This document shows, one piece after another, positions 10,194 to 44,889 of a stretch of 64,000 nucleotides of DNA (position 1 is its first letter; each line of letters opens with the position of its first letter). Source of the stretch: Eledone cirrhosa. Its lineage: Eukaryota. The stretch spans positions 1,178,001-1,242,000 of the forward strand of contig OZ024761.1 of assembly GCA_964016885.1 (NCBI GenBank), written 5' to 3'. Both the position numbers and the translations under genes were made by a program. A model generated the notes under the pieces. That model did no database searches. It saw only the letters and a program-made list of their open reading frames with translations, and was not told the origin of the DNA.

Positions 10194-10570
10194 TTGTTTG
10201 TTTGTGTGTGTTAATTATGACATAAATTATGATATTACTTTACACCTTCCGGCATATGTCATATAGTCATATTATCATAGAAGGCTAAGTGGAACCCAAG
10301 CAGTATATATATATTTAAAAAAAGCTGTTAAAGGGCGAATCAACTCATCAGACTCAACGGTCATCCGATGATATTTGTTTTTGAAATGCGCATAATAAAA
10401 TACATGGAACTCTTTTAACCATATTTTGATCTTATATATATATAATGTAGGAGGTGAGTTTTATTGTAGCACAATAAAGCAATGCAAATATCGGATAAGC
10501 AGCACTCTACAGTTTGTAGGACTGGAGTATAAATAATATAAGATCAAAAGATGGTTAAAATAGTTCCAAG

Positions 10571-10641
10571 TATTTTATTATGCGCATTTCAAAAACAAAT
10601 ATCATCATGGGATGATATCTGCGTTTTCATCAGATAAAATA
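10571..10641 (-). ncRNA. Type-I hammerhead ribozyme
   Basis: tattttat-CTGATGA-(long stem II)-GAAA-TGCGCA-TA-ataaaata. 8-bp stem I. Confidence 0.85.
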
Positions 10642-11995
10642 GGGATACATGATATGAAGCTTAAAAAACACTTGTGAATAGTGAATTTTTAAATCAACAT
10701 ATGAAAAATAATTTTGCTAGCTGAGAAATTTACCATTATATCTAATTTCAATTCTATAATAAATAGACGCACGGATTTATTTTCTCTCTGCTTGCATAAA
10801 TTCCACAGAACATTCCATAAAGTATACAGCTAATATCTAATACCTACTAGTTTAAAATCCTTTTTCTTAAAGGCTTATATATCTTTTAAAAATATACCCT
10901 TCTTTCTACCTTATTTCAATGTTATTTATTATATATTATATAATACAAGTTACTCATTCTATATCACTCCTCTTTATCACTTTCCTTTCTTCCTCTTTTC
11001 TTTTTAATTTCTAACCTCTAATCTCTACTTTTTCTTCCTAACTATTTCTCAATTCTTATTATTACTCACCACAACATTATCCATTCTTCCATCTTTCCTC
11101 ATATCATTGGCCATAAAAATTATTATTATTTTTTTAATACATTATAGTATTACCTTTAATAGTCCTTCGTAAACATAAACATTTTTTTTTTTTTTACGTT
11201 AGATTTTTCTTCCTTAAATTCCTTTATCTCATCCTTTCATGCTAGTTTGACTTTTACATATTACAATACATAAAAACAAACTTAAACCCTAACTAATTTC
11301 TTTTAATATATTATATTATTACCATTAGAAAATATTTCGTAAACATATATATTTTTTGATATTTTCTTCCTGAAACATTCTTTTCTTCTTTGTCTTCTGC
11401 GCTCATTTTTAAACAAACTATTTACGTACAAATATTACGCACATATATTACATTACATAAAAACAAATTTAAACCCTAACTAATTCCTCTAAATTTATAA
11501 CTCATTTATTCTTCTACTTTTTTTCACATTATATCCTTAATAACATTAATATTTTTATTTTAATAATACATATTAATCATTTCTTTTCCTCGCACATATT
11601 AAACCTTTCAATATACACACCTTAATTTAATATTATTCTTAATCCCTTTTTCTCTTCATGCATAAACCTCTTTAATTTTTAATTTCAAATTCTTTTAAAT
11701 TGTCTATTATCTTCCAACGGCTTATTAACTTCTCTCTGTGAGACAATATATATTTTTTTCTCGGTTGTAAAGGCTATCTCTCTCGCTTTATCACCCATCT
11801 CTCCTCCTCTCTCATCCTTCCTTCTTATACTGCTCCCCCACCACTCTTTACTCTCATCTCCTCCTCTTCCTTATTTTTTCCAACCACCCCCTCACTTTTT
11901 TCCAATCTCATACACCAATCTTAAATTATTTTTCATATATTGATTTAAAACTTCACTATTCACAAGTGTTTTTTAAGCTTCATATCATGTATCCC

Positions 11996-12066
11996 TATTT
12001 TATCTGATGAAAACGCAGATATCATCCCATGATTATATTTGTTTTTGAAATGCGCATAATAAAATA
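11996..12066 (+). ncRNA. Type-I hammerhead ribozyme
   Basis: tattttat-CTGATGA-aaacgcagatatcatcccatgattatatttgttttt-GAAA-TGCGCA-TA-ataaaata. Confidence 0.85.
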
Positions 12067-12189
12067 CTTGGAACTCTTTTAACCTTCTTTTGATCTTATA
12101 TATATATATATATATATATATGGCCTCAGCCGGATGGCTGGAACAGGTAAAAGAATAAAAGAGTAGAATATATATATATATATATATAT

Positions 12190-27085: not shown

Positions 27086-27124
<39 letters not shown>

Positions 27125-27164
27125 ATATATTAACAAATGGAAACTATATTTATAAAACCATATT

Positions 27165-27230
27165 TATTTTATTATACATATTTCAAGGGCCACCAAGGCA
27201 AATTATGGTGTGCTTTCATCAGATAAAATA
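27165..27230 (-). ncRNA. Type-I hammerhead ribozyme
   Basis: Reverse complement of 27376-27441. Confidence 0.8.
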
Positions 27231-27375
27231 CAATACAGATTTGTTTTATAAATAAATATTGACATACCCTGAAAAAAGACAACCTTAACGGTTGGAGCTT
27301 CCAGGAAGCTCCAACCGTTAAGATTGTCTTTTTTCAGGGTATGTCAATATTTATTTATAAAACAAATCTGTATTG

Positions 27376-27441
27376 TATTTTATCTGATGAAAGCACACCA
27401 TAATTTGCCTTGGTGGCCCTTGAAATATGTATAATAAAATA
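27376..27441 (+). ncRNA. Type-I hammerhead ribozyme
   Basis: tattttat-CTGATGA-aagcacaccataatttgccttggtggccctt-GAAA-TATGTA-TA-ataaaata. Confidence 0.82.
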
Positions 27442-28252
27442 AATATGGTTTTATAAATATAGTTTCCATTTGTTAATATATTATATATTTACTCCACTAA
27501 ATTGTTGAGTGCTTTATATCAGTTATAAAAATGTTTAAGCTTGTTGAATCCCAACAAATTAAATATAACCTCTGCATATATATATATATATATACTCTCT
27601 CTGTCTCTCTATCTCTTTATCCCTCCCCCCCCCGCTTCTCTCTCGCTTTATCTATTTCTCTCTCTCCCCCTCTCTCTACCTCCATCTCTATCTCTCTCTC
27701 TAGCCCCCCTCTCTATTGTTCTTTACTACCATGGAACCTCTTTATCATCATTCCACTTTGCTACCTGACATTAAAGAAAACATATGAAAAAAATAAAATA
27801 CATAAAATAAAACCACAAAACCAAAACAAACCATAAAATTAAAATAAAAGAAAACAACAAAAAAGCCCCCAGGTGATGACTAAGATGACAACGATGATGA
27901 TTATGATGGTGATGATGATGATGATGACAATTATTATTATCTTACAAAAAAAAAAAGGATGAAACAAAACAAAGAAACAAACAAACAAAATCCTTACTAA
28001 TTCATAAACATGTCAACATTCTGTTGAAAACTTGATGAAATATCTTCTCTCATTCTGGTGGCTCTCACACTTATATATATATATATAAATATATATATAT
28101 ATCAGTGTGTGGGTGGTTGTATGGGTGTGTGTGTGTATGTGTATGTGTGTGTGTGTACATGAATATATGTATGTATGTATATATATATATATATGTATGC
28201 ATCGAGTACTTCTCTGATTTGTGGTCTTCCAGATGTTTACACCATAGACATT

Positions 28253-32755: not shown

Positions 32756-32809
32756 ATATTTATATATATATAATATATAAGATCAAAAGGTGGTTAAAAG
32801 AGTTCCATG

Positions 32810-32880
32810 TATTTTATTATGAGCATTTCAAAAACAAATATCATCATGCAATAACATTTGCGTTTTCGTCAGATAAAATA
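32810..32880 (-). ncRNA. Type-I hammerhead (stem III loop variant TGCTCA)
   Basis: Reverse complement of 32963-33033 with one change. Confidence 0.7.
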
Positions 32881-32962
32881 GGGAGACATGATATGAAGGT
32901 TAAAACACACTTGTGAATAGTGCAGTTTTAAATGCAGTTTTAACCTTCATATCATGTCTCCC

Positions 32963-33033
32963 TATTTTATCTGACGAAAACGCAAATGTTATTGCATGAT
33001 GATATTTGTTTTTGAAATGCGCATAATAAAATA
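32963..33033 (+). ncRNA. Type-I hammerhead ribozyme
   Basis: tattttat-CTGACGA-aaacgcaaatgttattgcatgatgatatttgttttt-GAAA-TGCGCA-TA-ataaaata. Confidence 0.85.
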
Positions 33034-33169
33034 CATGGAACTCTTTTAACCATCTTTTGATCTTATATATTATTTATACTCCAGTCCTACAAACTGTAGA
33101 GTGCTACTTATCCGATATCTGCATTGCTTTATTGTACTATAATAAAACTCACCTCCTACATATATATAT

Positions 33170-33363
33170 ATAAGTTATTCCGGGTTGAATTGGAGGTAAC
33201 CACAGTAAGTAAGGTACTCAATACATAGCAGAATATAAAAGTTTTAATATAGAAGAGCTTCTACAAGACTAGAACTGTTTCATTCGTGAGAAATCATCAG
33301 GGAGCTCACTGATAATTTCTCATGAATGAAACAGTTCTAGTCCTGTAGAATCTCTTCTATATT

Positions 33364-33364
<1 letters not shown>
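33170..33364 (-). mobile_element. Fold-back cassette with partial hammerhead
   Basis: Inverted arms 33245-33300 / 33309-33364. Minus strand reads CTGATGA-t-ttc-tcac-gaa-t-GAAA-CAGTT. Stem I is lost at the inversion point. Confidence 0.6.
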
Positions 33365-33397
<33 letters not shown>

Positions 33398-33399
33398 CA

Positions 33400-33495
<96 letters not shown>

Positions 33496-33561
33496 GAAGA
33501 GAGAAGGAACATTTAGATATAATTAGTAATAAAATGTATCATACCTAAACTGCTCCTAAGT

Positions 33562-33645
33562 TCCTCGACTACGTAGTTTCGTGGCATAAACAATATATCA
33601 TAAAGATATAGAGTCCTTGCGAGGTCTGCCGACTTATCAAGAGGA
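33562..33645 (-). ncRNA. Hammerhead with U3-A8 core
   Basis: Reverse complement of 34102-34190, 5 nt shorter in loop II. Confidence 0.75.
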
Positions 33646-34101
33646 TACCTCATTTTACTAGTCTCAAGAACGCGTCTACACGACGTGAGAAAGAATCCCA
33701 AAAGGCGGAGGGGGAGATAGTCACGCGATATAACGGTCGAGAAACAGAGCTAAGCCTCTTATAACCCCGAAGAAAATACCACGGAGGCGGAGGGGGTATT
33801 TATATCGAGGCCGTAGAAGAGGTGGTGAAGAAGGCGAGAAGTATGAGTAATGGAAGCTTTCCAGCTGTCCCCACACTTCAAAGATTGCTCGACCAGAGGG
33901 AGTTATTAACAATATATTTAGAAACACACAGATACATGCGGACACACACATATATACATGAATGCATCCGCACCCAACTGTGAGTTAAGAGGCTTAGCTC
34001 TGTTTCTCGACCGTTATATCGCGTGACTATCTCCCCCTCCGCCTTTTGGGATTCTTTCTCACGTCGTGTAGACGCGTTCTTGAGACTAGTAAAATGAGGT
34101 A

Positions 34102-34190
34102 TCCTCTTGATAAGTCGGCAGACCTCGCAAGGACTCTATATCTTTATGATATATTGTTTTGTTTATGCCACGAAACTACGTAGTCGAGGA
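34102..34190 (+). ncRNA. Hammerhead with U3-A8 core
   Basis: tcctc-TTGATAA-gtcggca...tgccac-GAAA-CTACGTAG-TC-gagga. GUC triplet and palindromic stem III. Confidence 0.78.
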
Positions 34191-34423
34191 ACTTAGGAGC
34201 AGTTTAGGTATGATACATTTTATTACTAATTATATCTAAATGTTCCTTCTCTCTTCATAATGTATTTTTAACTCTGATACTGGTTCAGTCTAGTTCAACT
34301 GAATTGGTCTGTCCCAGTCATTCATTGAGCAACATCGGTGAAGTTGGCACCCTTAACTCACAGTTGGGTGCGGATGCATTCATGTATATATGTGTGTCCC
34401 CGCATGTATCTGTGTGTTTCTAA

Positions 34424-34557
<134 letters not shown>

Positions 34558-34559
34558 CT

Positions 34560-34590
<31 letters not shown>

Positions 34591-35859
34591 TATATATACA
34601 TATATATATATACATATATACTATATATATATATATATATATATACAAGTCTAACCCATGCTAGCGTGGAAAGTGGATCTTAAACGAAGATGATGATGAT
34701 GATGATGATGATGAAGCATGGAAAATTGACATGACAATGGTGATGAAATACATACAGACACATTTACATACAGGACAAAACACAGAGACTCAAACACACA
34801 TATATACACAGACTCAAACACACATATATACACACACAACACACACATACACACACATCACACAAACACACACAAGTACATGAAAACACAAAAAAAGAAG
34901 AAAACCCAGCTAATATGTGACCAGTCTGTTACAATTTCAGGCCATCTTCTTCTATCGACAGTAAAGAAATAAATGTTTTATTCAGTTAAAATATATTTTG
35001 GTGCAGAGATTTGCCTGACAGTTAGCAAAATATTCATAACTTTTATATATATTTTCCACCCCTTCTCTGTAAACCCAGCCCTCCCTCTACCTCCTCTCTC
35101 TACCCCTCCCTCTACTCCCCCTCTCTATACACCCCACCCCCTCTTCTCCCCCTCTCCAGACCCTCCCCTTCCTCTACTCCCCCTCCCTCTTCTCCCCCTC
35201 TCTACCCCATCCCCTCCATCTACCCCCTTCTATACACCATCTTACTCTCCCCCTACCCCCTCTCTACATCCCCTCTGCTCTCCCCTCTCTACCCCCACCT
35301 ACCCCCTCTCAACCCCTCCTTCTACATCCATCTCTCTCTACCCTCCCCTCCCTCCCCTCCCAACAAGTTTGGTTTTAACTGATGTTGTTTTTTGGGGTTT
35401 TTTTAAATATGAGATTTCTATATTTAAAAGAAAAAAAAATTATCATCATCATCATCACTGCCACCATATGTAGTATACCACCAGCGCCACCACTTTTATC
35501 ATCACCACTGCCACCACCACTGCCACCACCACCACCACCACCACAACCATTATCATGAATGTCACCACCGCTATCATCACCTCCACCACTGCCACCACCA
35601 CTACCACCAGCACCATCATCATCATCATCATCATTAATGTCACCACTACCACCACCATCGTCACCATCGTCACCATCATCATCATCAATGTCACCACTAT
35701 TATCATCCTCATCATCATCATCACCACAACCACCACCATATAACACCACGAGCACAAGCACCACCACTACAATCATCATTATCACCACTGCCAACACCAA
35801 TACCACCTCTACCACCACTGCCACCATCAACAACATCGTCATAACCACTGCTACCACCA

Positions 35860-38800
35860 CATCCCACCACTACCATCACCAACACCACCACCACTACCAT
35901 CACCAACACCACCACCACTACCATCACCATCACCACCACCACTACCATCACCAACACCACCACCACTACCATCACCAACACCACCACCACTACCATCACC
36001 AACACCACCACCACTACCATCACCAACACCACCACCACTACCATCACCAACACCACCACCACTACCATCACCAACACCACCACCACTACCATCACCAACA
36101 CCACCACCACTACCATCACCAACACCACCACCACTACCATCACCATCACCACCACCACTACCATCACCAACACCACCACCACTACCATCACCAACACCAC
36201 CACCACTACCATCACCAACACCACCACCACTACCATCACCATCACCACCACCACTACCATCACCAACACCACCACCACTACCATCACCAACACCACCACC
36301 ACTACCATCACCAACACCACCACCACTACCATCACCAACACCACCACCACTACCATCACCAACACCACCACCACTACCATCACCAACACCACCACCACTG
36401 CCATCACCAACACCACCACCACTACCATCACCAACACCACCACCACTACCATCACCAACACCACCACCACTGCCATCACCAACACCACCACCACTACCAT
36501 CACCAACACCACCACCACTACCATCACCAACACCACCACCACTACCATCACCAACACCACCACCACTACCATCACCAACACCACCACCACTACCATCACC
36601 AACACCACCACCACTACCATCACCAACACCACCACCACTGCCATCACCAACACCACCACCATTACCATCACCAACACCACCACCACTACCATCACCAACA
36701 CCACCACCACTACCATCACCAACACCACCACCACTACCATCACCAACACCACCACCACTGCCATCACCATCACCACCACCACTACCATCACCAACACCAC
36801 CACCACTACCACTACCATCACCACCACCACTACCATCACCAACACCACCACCACTGCCATCACCAACACCACCACCACTACCATCACCAACACCACCACC
36901 ACTGCCATCACCATCACCACCACCACTACCATCACCAACACCACCACCACTACCACTACCATCACCACCACCACTACCATCACCAACACCACCACCACTG
37001 CCATCACCATCACCACCACCACTACCATCACCAACACCACCACCACTACCACTACCATCACCACCACCACTACCATCACCAACACCACCACCACTGCCAT
37101 CACCATCACCACCACCACTGCCATCACCATCACCACCACCACTACCATCACCAACACCACCACCACTGCCATCACCATCACCACCACCACTACCATCACC
37201 AACACCACCACCACTACCACTACCATCACCACCACCACTACCATCACCAACACCACCACCACTGCCATCACCATCACCACCACCACTGCCATCACCATCA
37301 CCACCACCACTACCATCACCAACACCACCACCACTGCCATCACCATCACCACCACCACTACCATCACCAACACCACCACCACTGCCATCACCAACACCAC
37401 CACCACTACCATCACCAACACCACCACCACTGCCATCACCAACACCACCACCACTACCATCACCAACACCACCACCACTGCCATCACCAACACCACCACC
37501 ATTACCATCACCAACACCACCACCACTACCATCACCAACACCACCACCACTACCATCACCAACACCACCACCACTGCCATCACCAACACCACCACCACTG
37601 CCATCACCAACACCACCACCACTGCCATCACCAACACCACCACCACTACCATCACCAACACCACCACCATTACCATCACCAACACCACCACCACTGCCAT
37701 CACCAACACCACCACCACTGCCATCACCATCACCACCACCACTGCCATCACCAACACCACCACCATTACCATCACCAACACCACCAACACTACCATCACC
37801 ACCACCACTACCATCACCAACACCACCACCATTACCAACACCAACACCACCACCACTGCCATCACCATCACCACCACCACTACCATCACCAACACCACCA
37901 CCATTACCAACACCAACACCACCACCACTACCATCACCAACACCACCACCACTACCATCACCACCACCACTACCATCACCAACACCACCACCATTACCAA
38001 CACCAACACCACCACCACTGCCATCACCAACACCACCACCATTACCAACACCAACACCACCACCACTACCATCACCACCACCACTACCATCACCAACACC
38101 ACCACCATTACCATCACCAACACCACCACCACTACCATCACCAACACCACCACCACTACCATCACCAACACCACCACCACTGCCATCACCATCACCACCA
38201 CCACTACCATCACCAACACCACCACCACTACCATCACCAACACCACCACCACTACCATCACCAACACCACCACCACTGCCATCACCAACACCACCACCAC
38301 TACCATCACCAACACCACCACCACTGCCATCACCAACACCACCACCATTACCATCACCAACACCACCACCACTGCCATCACCATCACCACCACCACTACC
38401 ATCACCAACACCACCACCACTGCCATCACCAACACCACCACCACTGCCATCACCATCACCACCACCACTGCCATCACCAACACCACCACCATTACCATCA
38501 CCAACACCACCACCACTACCATCACCACCACCACTACCATCACCAACACCACCACCATTACCAACACCAACACCACCACCACTGCCATCACCATCACCAC
38601 CACCACTACCATCACCAACACCACCACCATTACCAACACCAACACCACCACCACTACCATCACCAACACCACCACCACTACCATCACCACCACCACTACC
38701 ATCACCAACACCACCACCATTACCAACACCAACACCACCACCACTGCCATCACCAACACCACCACCATTACCAACACCAACACCACCACCACTACCATCA

Positions 38801-39170
38801 CCACCACCACTACCATCACCAACACCACCACCATTACCATCACCAACACCACCACCACTACCATCACCAACACCACCACCACTACCATCACCAACACCAC
38901 CACCACTGCCATCACCATCACCACCACCACTACCATCACCAACACCACCACCACTACCATCACCAACACCACCACCACTACCATCACCAACACCACCACC
39001 ACTGCCATCACCAACACCACCACCACTACCATCACCAACACCACCACCATTACCATCACCAACACCACCACCACTGCCATCACCATCACCACCACCACTA
39101 CCATCACCAACACCACCACCATTACCATCACCAACACCACCACCACTGCCATCACCATCACCATTATCAC
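35860..39170. repeat. 21-bp C/A-rich minisatellite (about 155 units)
   Basis: Unit caccact(a/g)ccatcacca(a/t)cac, with occasional 18-bp units. Confidence 0.95.
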
Positions 39171-39819
39171 CACTGCCACCACCAATAACACTTCTACCAT
39201 CACCATCAACATCATCATCATAACCACTGCTACCACCAAACCATCACTACCACTACCACCACCACTACTACCACCACCAACATCATCATCATAACCACTG
39301 CCACCACCAAACCATCACCACCAACATCATCATCATAACCACTACCACCACCACCAACATCATCATCATAACCACTACCACTACCACCACCACCAACATC
39401 ATCATCATAACCACTGCCACCACCTAACCATCACTACCACTACCACTACCACCACCACCAACATCATCATCATAACCACTGCCACCACCAAACCATCACT
39501 ACCACTACCACTACCACCACTACCACCACCAACATCATCATTACTAATGTAAAGTCATGTGGATCAGTGGTTAATGTGTTTGGCTGATGCTGGTAAGCTC
39601 GTGGGTTGTGTCTTTTAGCAGGCTGAGTGGACTGAGGTACTGTGAAATAAAGTGTCTTGCTCAAGGACACAGTGCACATCCTGGGGAATCGAACTCAGGT
39701 CATTATGGTTGTGACTTGAAAGCCCTCATCCCTAAGTACACACGCACATAGACTCTTTTACTCTGTTACTCTTTTACCTGTACCAGCCATCCGGCTGAGG
39801 CCATGCTACGGCACACATA

Positions 39820-43099: not shown

Positions 43100-44408
43100 A
43101 TAATAATAATAATAATAATGAAATTATTGTGTAAAGTGCTCAGGTGCACTACAACTCGTCAATATAGTACATAGAATAATACACAAATGTCAGGGAAGTA
43201 CATGTTTGTATGTGTTAGCTGTAGTGTTGGCGGATCTCGGGAAGCATGGAGGCGTTAAAGGATGCAGTGTCTCGACAGCTAACAACTGACGCAGGCAGTT
43301 TGTTCCATGAGTGTCTTAAAGGATGCAGTGTCTCGACAGCTAACAACTGACGCAGGCAGTTTGTTCCATGAGTGTCTTAAAGGATGCAGTGTCTCGACAG
43401 CTAACAACTGATGCAGGTAGTTTGTTCCATGCTTCAGCAACTCTGAGCGTGAAAAAATGTTTCCGAAAGTCATGGGAACTGTGCTGTTTTCTTACTTTGT
43501 GGGCATGTCCATGTGTGTTAGACACATGGAAATCAAAAAGGTACTCAGGGTTGTTGTTGGCAACATGGTTAACGATTTTGTGGGTGTTTACCAAGTCAGT
43601 TGCCAGGCGTCGGAGCTTCAATGAATCCATGTCCAGGGAAGCAAGGCGCTCAGAGTATGGTAGATGCCTGATGGAGGGTATTCGCTTGGTTGCACGTCTC
43701 TGAACAGTTTCCAGGCGGTCAATGTCCTGAGCAAGATGGGGGTTCCAGACTGGTGATGCAAATTCTAAGTGTTGTTGCACCATAGTGGTATACAGCCTTA
43801 AATAGATATCTGGAGAGCGGCTGACAAAGGTCTTGCTGAGTGATGCTAAGACACCCTCGGCCCTCTTGACAATTTTAGAGACGTACCTCGTCCAACGCAA
43901 ATCGCTGCTGACCATAATGCCCAGGTAACGTTCACAGGAAGACTTCTTGATATTAGTGCTGTGGAGGGAGTATGTGGACGCTGGGTTTTTACTCCCAAAA
44001 TGCATGGTGGTGCACTTGTCCACAACTGGCTTGAGTTGCCAGTCTGAGATCCATTGTTGCATTGTGTCCAGGTTAGACTGCAAGCAAGATCTATAGTGTT
44101 CAGGATCTGTCCTTTTTATCTCAAGGTACAGCTTGATGTCATCTGCGTACTTTAGTACTGTGGCATTCTTTAAGTTGGCATCTATGTCATTAATATATGC
44201 CACAAACAAAAAAGGGCCAAGAACAGATCCCTGTGGTACACCAGATGACATCTCATATGGTGAGGAATGCTGTCCCAGAACCGTGACTACCTCTCTTCGA
44301 CTGAGAATGAAGGACTTCAACCAGTTAAAAAGATCATCCTTCACACCCATTGCAGAGAGTTTTGCCATAAGCCTTTTGTGTGGCACAGAATTGAAGGCCT
44401 TCGCAAAG
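43100..44408 (-). mobile_element. CR1/L2-type LINE reverse transcriptase, 5'-truncated
   Basis: FAKAFNSVPH, SGVPQGSVLGP, YADD, YLGI, LETVQRRATK, RKHFFTLRVAEAWNKLP and a (TTA)n tail. The annotated N-terminus is microsatellite. Confidence 0.92.
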
Positions 44409-44889
44409 TATGTGTATATATATATATACACACACACATATATATATATATGTACACAGATACTCATACATATATATATATATACACAATATTTGCATAG
44501 ACATTTATACAGCGGCGATGTGGGAGTTGTGTTCTTCACAGAATAGTGTGATAAATAGACAGATAGACAGCCAGGCTTGTTTGACCATTGTTTGCTGAAA
44601 AGGGATGGAAACTTTGGAGGATGGTGGGTTGGATTGGAGGGTTGTGCAGATTAGGGTATTACTGTAGGATGGGGGATTGAATTGGAGGGGTAGAATTGGG
44701 AGGTATGTGGGGCAGAAATGGGGTGAATCTGGAGAATGGAGCGCTAAATTGGAGGGGGTATTACTGGAGTATGGGGGACTGAATTGAAGGGGTAGATTTG
44801 GGAGGAATGGGGGGAAGAAATGGAGTGTAACTGGAGAATGGAGTGCTAAATTGGGGGGGGGGGGGGAATTGAGGGGAATAGTATATTAC

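Follow-up and report, generated by a model that had tools for sequence, protein, structure and literature searches.

A U3-A8 hammerhead repeat with paired insertion ends in Eledone cirrhosa, a likely non-LTR retrozyme

Introduction

A 64,000-nucleotide stretch of the Eledone cirrhosa genome (contig OZ024761.1, positions 1,178,001 to 1,242,000 of the forward strand; hereafter the window) carries two inverted copies of a hammerhead motif whose core reads UUGAUAA instead of CUGAUGA. The locus raises two questions: does this core reflect scattered mutation of a CUGAUGA family or the state of a family of its own, and how did two copies come to lie head to head between (AT)n tracts?

The U3-A8 swap itself is already published and is not new. 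Natural covariation from C3-G8 to U3-A8 was described with several examples by Perreault 2011 (PMC3088659), activity of the swapped pair having been known earlier in vitro. Cervera and de la Pena 2014 (PMC4209133) reported U3-A8 in the hammerheads of Schistosoma Penelope-like elements (PLEs), with ~1,300 hits and UUGAUAA listed in the supplement; in the same study, metazoan PLE hammerheads cleaved poorly in vitro. According to a 2017 review, PLE-type hammerheads usually lack the loop I-loop II tertiary contacts of fast hammerheads, and far larger natural insertions are known in helix I.

Non-LTR retrozymes were defined by Cervera and de la Pena 2020 (PMC7229834), who described retrozyme circles and proposed that these are mobilised by PLEs. 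Li et al. 2026 (10.64898/2026.07.22.740005) linked retrozymes to pLTRs and observed no cleavage in 8/9 Xenopus retrozyme dimers. Both papers state the mechanism of retrozyme mobilisation to be open. For PLEs, a tail at one end of inverted insertions was reported by Craig 2021 (PMC8557442) and Arkhipova 2013 (PMC3846280) and explained by endonuclease resolution or self-priming, the origin of tails and inversions likewise being stated as open.

Materials and Methods

Family members were collected by exact matching to a 21-mer that covers the core, C or T being permitted at position 3 and A or G at position 8. Subfamily B was found by means of a query located outside the ribozyme. Insertion ends were classified by BLAST at 54 loci, which account for 97 of the first 100 matches by position along contig C1; one duplicated array of three was left out, and one segmental-duplicate copy and one low-complexity match were dropped from the end count. 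The arms of an insertion were compared where they overlapped by at least 60 nt.

Results

Between 34102 and 34190, three helices surround a core and stem I is open-ended, as in type I hammerheads. The core comprises a Watson-Crick 3-8 pair, U4 G5 A6, A9, GAAA, A15.1-U16.1 and an NUH triplet, which is GUC. The elements, read from the sequence unless noted otherwise, are:

34102..34190, + strand: type I hammerhead motif with a U3-A8 core, predicted cut after C34185
34107..34113, + strand: core UUGAUAA (U3 at 34107, A8 at 34112), its status as family state taken from genome matches
34102-34106 and 34186-34190, + strand: stem I, TCCTC and GAGGA
34114-34120 and 34166-34171, + strand: stem II, with G10.1-C11.1 and one bulged C
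34121..34165, + strand: 45-nt loop II with a two-part hairpin of ~13 bp (about 34128-34161), from folding and alignment
34172-34175, + strand: GAAA
34175..34184, + strand: 10-nt palindrome, predicted to form a stem III of 3 bp as a monomer and a 10-bp duplex as a dimer
33562..33645, - strand: inverted hammerhead copy, loop II shorter by 5 nt

The stem III palindrome reads CTACGTAG, which is 10 nt counting A15.1 and U16.1, and the 45 nt of loop II between the stem II strands become 58 nt with stem II included. In these respects the initial annotation is borne out: the UUGAUAA core recurs in both inverted copies (34102-34190; 33645-33562), stem I TCCTC/GAGGA, the GUC triplet and the palindromic stem III are all present, and the structured stem II insert put at ~50 nt corresponds to a hairpin-forming loop II close to that size. 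Both inverted copies are real, but they are the two arms of a single insertion and do not constitute independent evidence.

No match to the Rfam hammerhead models was obtained, either in the window at the gathering score or locally at E ≤ 10. The miss, in line with what had been anticipated for standard CUGANGA searches, is likely due to a limit of the models, given the long loop II combined with the core swap. Directly 5' of the core, an invariant GAGG-TAT-CCTC (34096-34106) could fold into a small hairpin that rivals stem I in all subfamilies. This hairpin is a possible off-switch.

The 21-mer retrieved 6,033 exact matches from the 3.0-Gb genome versus 0 for the reversed control, which rules out a chance motif, and the copies are dispersed over many contigs. 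U3-A8 is found in 99 among 100 matches listed and in about 6,020 copies genome-wide. Position 3 is other than U in 14 copies (6 C3-A8) and position 8 other than A in 12 (7 U3-G8, none C3-G8), compared with 9 copies that vary at the free position N7. U3-A8 is therefore the consensus of the collected copies and a fixed state of the family, and the alternative of a CUGAUGA family with scattered mutations is not seen. The further proposal that the double change is a sign of selection finds no support here: no C3-G8 relative was found to give polarity, and N7 varies no more often than position 3 or position 8. With the N7 control equal, within-family variants are uninformative about position-specific selection; the low variant counts at both positions are attributed to a young family, and selection on the 3-8 pair is not demonstrated by them.

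A genome search for a canonical-core relative, defined as CUGANGA 40-70 nt before an identical stem III, gave 0 matches. There is no amplified short-loop-II version either: the 7 matches obtained all lack the stem II 5' strand and proved to be chance TTGAT words within loop II.

Comparison with subfamily B extends the analysis beyond the main family. Two distinct subfamily B monomers share 73-74% identity with the main family outside the ribozyme, while 40-41 of the 42 core and stem positions of the ribozyme are kept (Fisher p 9e-5 to 3e-4); the best 42-nt window outside the ribozyme reaches 36/42. Loop II retains 31-33 of 46 positions, and an intermediate copy shares 40/42 ribozyme positions versus 81% elsewhere. 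These sequence comparisons argue for purifying selection on the ribozyme region, and we infer that this selection acts on catalysis. Stems I-III are nearly invariant across representatives without covariation, however, so a sequence-level constraint (promoter, protein site) could also explain the conservation. Among 15 chosen representatives, the loop II hairpin is paired in 98.4% of cells. Its changes are one-sided in six pairs, from G-U to A-U, with one column reading U-A, U-G and C-G; in this set no two-sided change was counted and the shuffle control for covariation was not exceeded.

Predicted folding was evaluated against shuffled sequences. Loop II together with stem II folds better than shuffles (z = -2.49); the whole 101-nt motif does not (z = -0.85). 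The predicted circular monomer reaches z -4.9 in the main family (A) and -2.8 in subfamily B (30 shuffles each). In this circle GAGGA is paired to +68-72; the 5' strand of stem I lies, in the main family, in a small hairpin of its own. With tertiary contacts ignored, the active fold is predicted to cost ~8 kcal/mol in context versus 1.1 in isolation, and the palindrome is predicted at -12.9 kcal/mol as a duplex versus +1.5 as a hairpin. These modelled energies would fit dimer cleavage in tandem precursors and a silent monomer. Dimers of small PLE hammerheads were reportedly treated in a 2017 paper. Dimer cleavage with a silent monomer has been described for other type I motifs (PMC4209133; PMC7229834; 2017 review).

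The motif sits in a monomer of ~591 nt (590-597 nt among 43 distinct full monomers, with two size outliers). Monomers occur in tandem, in head-to-tail arrays of up to about 5.8 units, and are non-coding, the longest ORF measuring 75 aa from Met and 86 aa from stop to stop. No RT + GIY-YIG ORF, as expected of an autonomous EN+ PLE, is present in the monomer or between tandem units. Tandem hammerhead units, absence of coding capacity, dispersed high copy number and a stable predicted circular fold agree with a non-LTR retrozyme, and 5' truncation, an inverted arm, a one-end tail and a microsatellite target form the signature of PLE-type insertion. The repeat is likely a non-LTR retrozyme mobilised in trans by a PLE enzyme. 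In one of four sequencing runs, assembled contigs contain loose (AT)n ends at +80 and +245; a second run yielded one 621-nt contig, from which circle and tandem DNA are indistinguishable. Two matches to viral contigs were discarded, neither continuing into the motif.

The insertion in the window (33487-34431) and the predicted hairpins near its end sites are organized as follows:

33358..33492, no strand: (AT)n target tract, left
33487..33989, - strand: left arm, made of monomer 168-591 followed by 1-80; it meets (AT)n at the short (+80) end site
33986..34431, + strand: right arm, made of monomer 393-591 followed by 1-247; it meets (AT)n at the long (+245) end site
34423..34620, no strand: (AT)n target tract, right
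34186..34257, + strand: predicted hairpin +1 to +72 sequestering GAGGA, with the +80 end site (about 34265) just 3'
34355..34419, + strand: predicted long hairpin immediately preceding the +245 end site

The two arms overlap by 4 nt at the inversion junction. Long hairpins directly 5' of both end sites are kept across subfamilies, with two-sided changes in 4/61 predicted pairs.

This arrangement recurs throughout the family. At the 54 loci, 3' ends lie at +80 or +245 (within a few bases) past the cut site and run into (AT)n, with two exceptions; upstream of the ribozyme there is in every case more monomer sequence. Direct insertions (n = 27) end at +80 in 13 cases and at +245 in 14. In inverted insertions, +80 is paired with +245 in 25/27 (p = 3e-6 vs 0.5), the two odd ones being +80/+80 (a compound locus) and +80/other. 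The 27 distinct subfamily B loci, classified by eye, comprise 18 unlike pairs, 2 long/long, 2 other and 5 direct insertions, unlike pairing amounting to 18/20. Since (AT)n is symmetric, the asymmetry of the ends would have to come from the RNA-protein complex. Truncation at the 5' side is not significantly enriched at the cut site in the position-ordered set, coinciding with it in 6 cases versus 3.7 expected (p = 0.16), and in 10 versus 5.2 expected over all loci (p = 0.03, for one of seven bins). Whole insertions are also found duplicated with their flanks, at 2.55-kb and 13.7-kb spacing (one locus on C1; C1 26.29-26.30 Mb), by either segmental duplication or assembly duplication.

The arms of one insertion differ from each other by 0.6%, versus 2.9% from other loci (p = 9e-5 over 21 insertions). 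When copies within an insertion were compared at 38 diagnostic sites, 14 of the 1,229 comparisons were discordant where about 320 are expected, and 33 private alleles are common to all copies within an insertion. Gene conversion could homogenise arms. The inverted arm could also have arisen without a second priming, by fold-back self-priming of one cDNA and endonuclease trimming, the published explanation for PLEs (Arkhipova 2013, PMC3846280; Craig 2021, PMC8557442). Fold-back demands that one arm nest in the other. This is the case in 15/24 inverted insertions, which are accordingly compatible with it, and several junctions are near-palindromic. Nesting fails, on the other hand, in 9/24 (one three-piece junction being left out), and in 3/24 as well as in the window copy each arm holds sequence absent from the other, although later deletions could mimic such patterns. 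In addition, either site can end the longer arm, which also speaks against fold-back, and on balance we regard this origin as rather unlikely. Instead, it is likely that a Penelope-type enzyme copied the insertions from a single, probably circular RNA, beginning at two fixed points.

The genome also harbors a very abundant, young ORF-bearing family with frames of 713-726 aa, containing RT-like and C-terminal GIY-YIG-like parts. By its motifs we take it to be PLE-type, as also indicated by Atlas neighbours with HTH_animal, GIY-YIG and RVT_1; the ORF gave no Pfam or PDB match. Its two ends lie about 90 nt apart and are unlike in 11/12 loci with both opposed ends visible, a single-event origin of the pairs being assumed. 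Matches between the monomer and this one family (30 loci) were of low complexity only, and the comparison with it thus revealed no autonomous partner sharing the monomer's sequence. The family has a ~1-kb 3' region, and a hammerhead scan was negative. A second PLE-type family, presumably Neptune-like and with a Cys-rich linker and a GIY-YIG-like C terminus, often lies next to the retrozyme within shared (AT)n tracts; its 3' region contains a CUGA(C/G)GA-type core.

Elsewhere in the window, three further head-to-head pairs of type I hammerheads lie in (AT)n (10431-12112, 27115-27540 and 32765-33158). They have canonical CUGA(U/C)GA cores, TTTAT/ATAAA stem I, 6-nt palindromes and stem II regions of 31-36 nt, and represent two families that the Rfam gathering score misses too; in each pair, one end is short (about +40) and the other long (about +130). 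A short element at 33170-33364, inserted in this (AT)n cluster, ends in a 120-nt near-palindrome, is similar at three other loci and looks like another repeat family. An ORF with an RVT_1 domain (E 1e-24) at 43340-44650 on the - strand is probably a LINE fragment, and a long tandem array with a 24-nt period and an extreme C-rich strand skew occupies about 35400-39300.

Discussion

We consider it probable that the ~591-nt repeat is a non-LTR retrozyme with a U3-A8 hammerhead, mobilised in trans by PLEs through two-site priming on one RNA. In the proposed cycle, tandem transcripts would self-cleave after GUC, probably as dimers via the 10-nt palindrome, with U3-A8 replacing C3-G8 and the loop II hairpin stacking as a tolerated extension of helix II. 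Ligation of the released monomer would yield a circle. There, both strands of stem I are predicted to be paired elsewhere, which would guard against re-cutting. A GIY-YIG/RT protein would cut both (AT)n strands. The two DNA 3' ends would then prime on a shared RNA, one DNA end using +80 and the other +245; a predicted long hairpin directly precedes either site. Reverse transcription would roll round, up to several monomers. Retention of both cDNAs would give a head-to-head inverted insertion as in the window, and retention of one a direct insertion, which may or may not carry the 165-nt 'tail'.

Several observations could also be read as a weak or inert hammerhead that is conserved as protein-binding or promoter sequence, PLEs mobilising linear tandem templates without circles. 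The stems are invariant without covariation, N7 is no freer than the core, truncations do not peak at the cut site, the active fold is predicted not to be the minimum in context, and the main substrate of the anole PLE is uncleaved RNA (Frangieh 2024, PMC11167929). Nevertheless, all catalytic positions and the three helices are intact across subfamilies about 26% apart, and near-complete homogeneity within insertions with clear divergence between them is more readily attributed to one monomer being copied repeatedly, which makes this explanation unlikely in our view. That the copies are pseudo-LTR fragments of an unsampled autonomous PLE, and no independent retrozyme, seems very unlikely. PLEs do typically show tails, 5' truncation, inversion and targeting of (TA)n (PMC3846280; PMC8557442), and PLE-type ORFs abound in the genome (60,625 first-look candidates), but with two exceptions the 54 loci end at one of the two sites and then (AT)n, are always preceded by monomer, and the head-to-tail arrays hold no ORF between their units.

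The retrozyme reading with two-site priming has points of contact with what is known of PLE enzymes. The anole PLE protein not only cuts both target strands but also extends them. It is predicted to be dimeric and uses two internal start sites without strand preference, and insertion of the anole PLE in vitro does not depend on cleavage (Frangieh 2024, PMC11167929). More tentatively, PLE-type insertion in general may be coordinated twin priming. In this scheme, one protein complex would grip a single RNA (here a circle made by the ribozyme) at two fixed sites flanked by hairpins and extend both ends of a double-strand break in a symmetric (AT)n, each end starting from a different site. If true, this one rule would account for the optional tail as well as for head-to-head inversions and tandem arrays in PLEs and retrozymes, and the 591-nt family, having no ORF, would offer a minimal substrate for twin-priming tests. 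Among the open papers covered by a literature search, neither a statistic on unlike-end pairing nor twin priming for PLEs or retrozymes was found.

The main value of the locus lies in genomic evidence for two-site, one-template, PLE-type insertion: an ORF-less hammerhead repeat bears the full PLE insertion signature, and its near-strict pairing rule leads to a direct biochemical prediction. It further provides a ~6,000-copy natural example of U3-A8 with an unusually long, conserved loop II hairpin. As the family is missed by Rfam, retrozyme counts based on CUGANGA and short-loop descriptors would be too low.

As far as the cited texts describe them, EN+ PLEs (Neptune/Nematis/Poseidon; PMC8557442, PMC3846280) share 5' truncation and tandem and head-to-head inverted arrangement with the present family, as well as the optional one-end tail, (TA)n targets and two internal starts (also PMC11167929). 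They differ in having an RT/EN ORF, which is absent here, and in a tail of 30-40 nt versus 165 nt (PMC8557442, PMC3846280). Ends here lie at A/U-rich, target-like sites, whereas the starts of the anole element are not homologous to the cut DNA (PMC11167929).

With regard to the ribozyme, the U3-A8 covariation is that of the natural variants of Perreault 2011 (PMC3088659), but it is fixed here in a ~6,000-copy family and combined with a long loop II. The U3-A8 hammerheads of Schistosoma mansoni Cercyon (PMC4209133) are likewise type I, with a palindromic helix III and UUGAUAA, and also occur as close inverted pairs, 100-700 bp apart. Compared with the PLE hammerheads in that study, loop II is longer (45 nt here versus 3-9 nt in the alignment), as is helix III (3 bp as a monomer, 10 bp as a dimer), and no ORF is attached.

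Like animal non-LTR retrozymes (PMC7229834; 10.64898/2026.07.22.740005), the repeat consists of non-coding tandems with one type I hammerhead per unit, is dispersed in thousands of copies, has a structured predicted circle and shares its genome with PLEs. Fixed, paired ends such as +80/+245 were not found in the parts of that literature covered here. In the circle, self-pairing is predicted to block the ribozyme, unlike in most metazoan circles, for which a free ribozyme was predicted (PMC7229834). The element differs from known non-LTR retrozymes in its long monomer (591 nt versus 150-450 nt typically, >1000 being mentioned; PMC7229834), its U3-A8 core and its 45-nt loop II.
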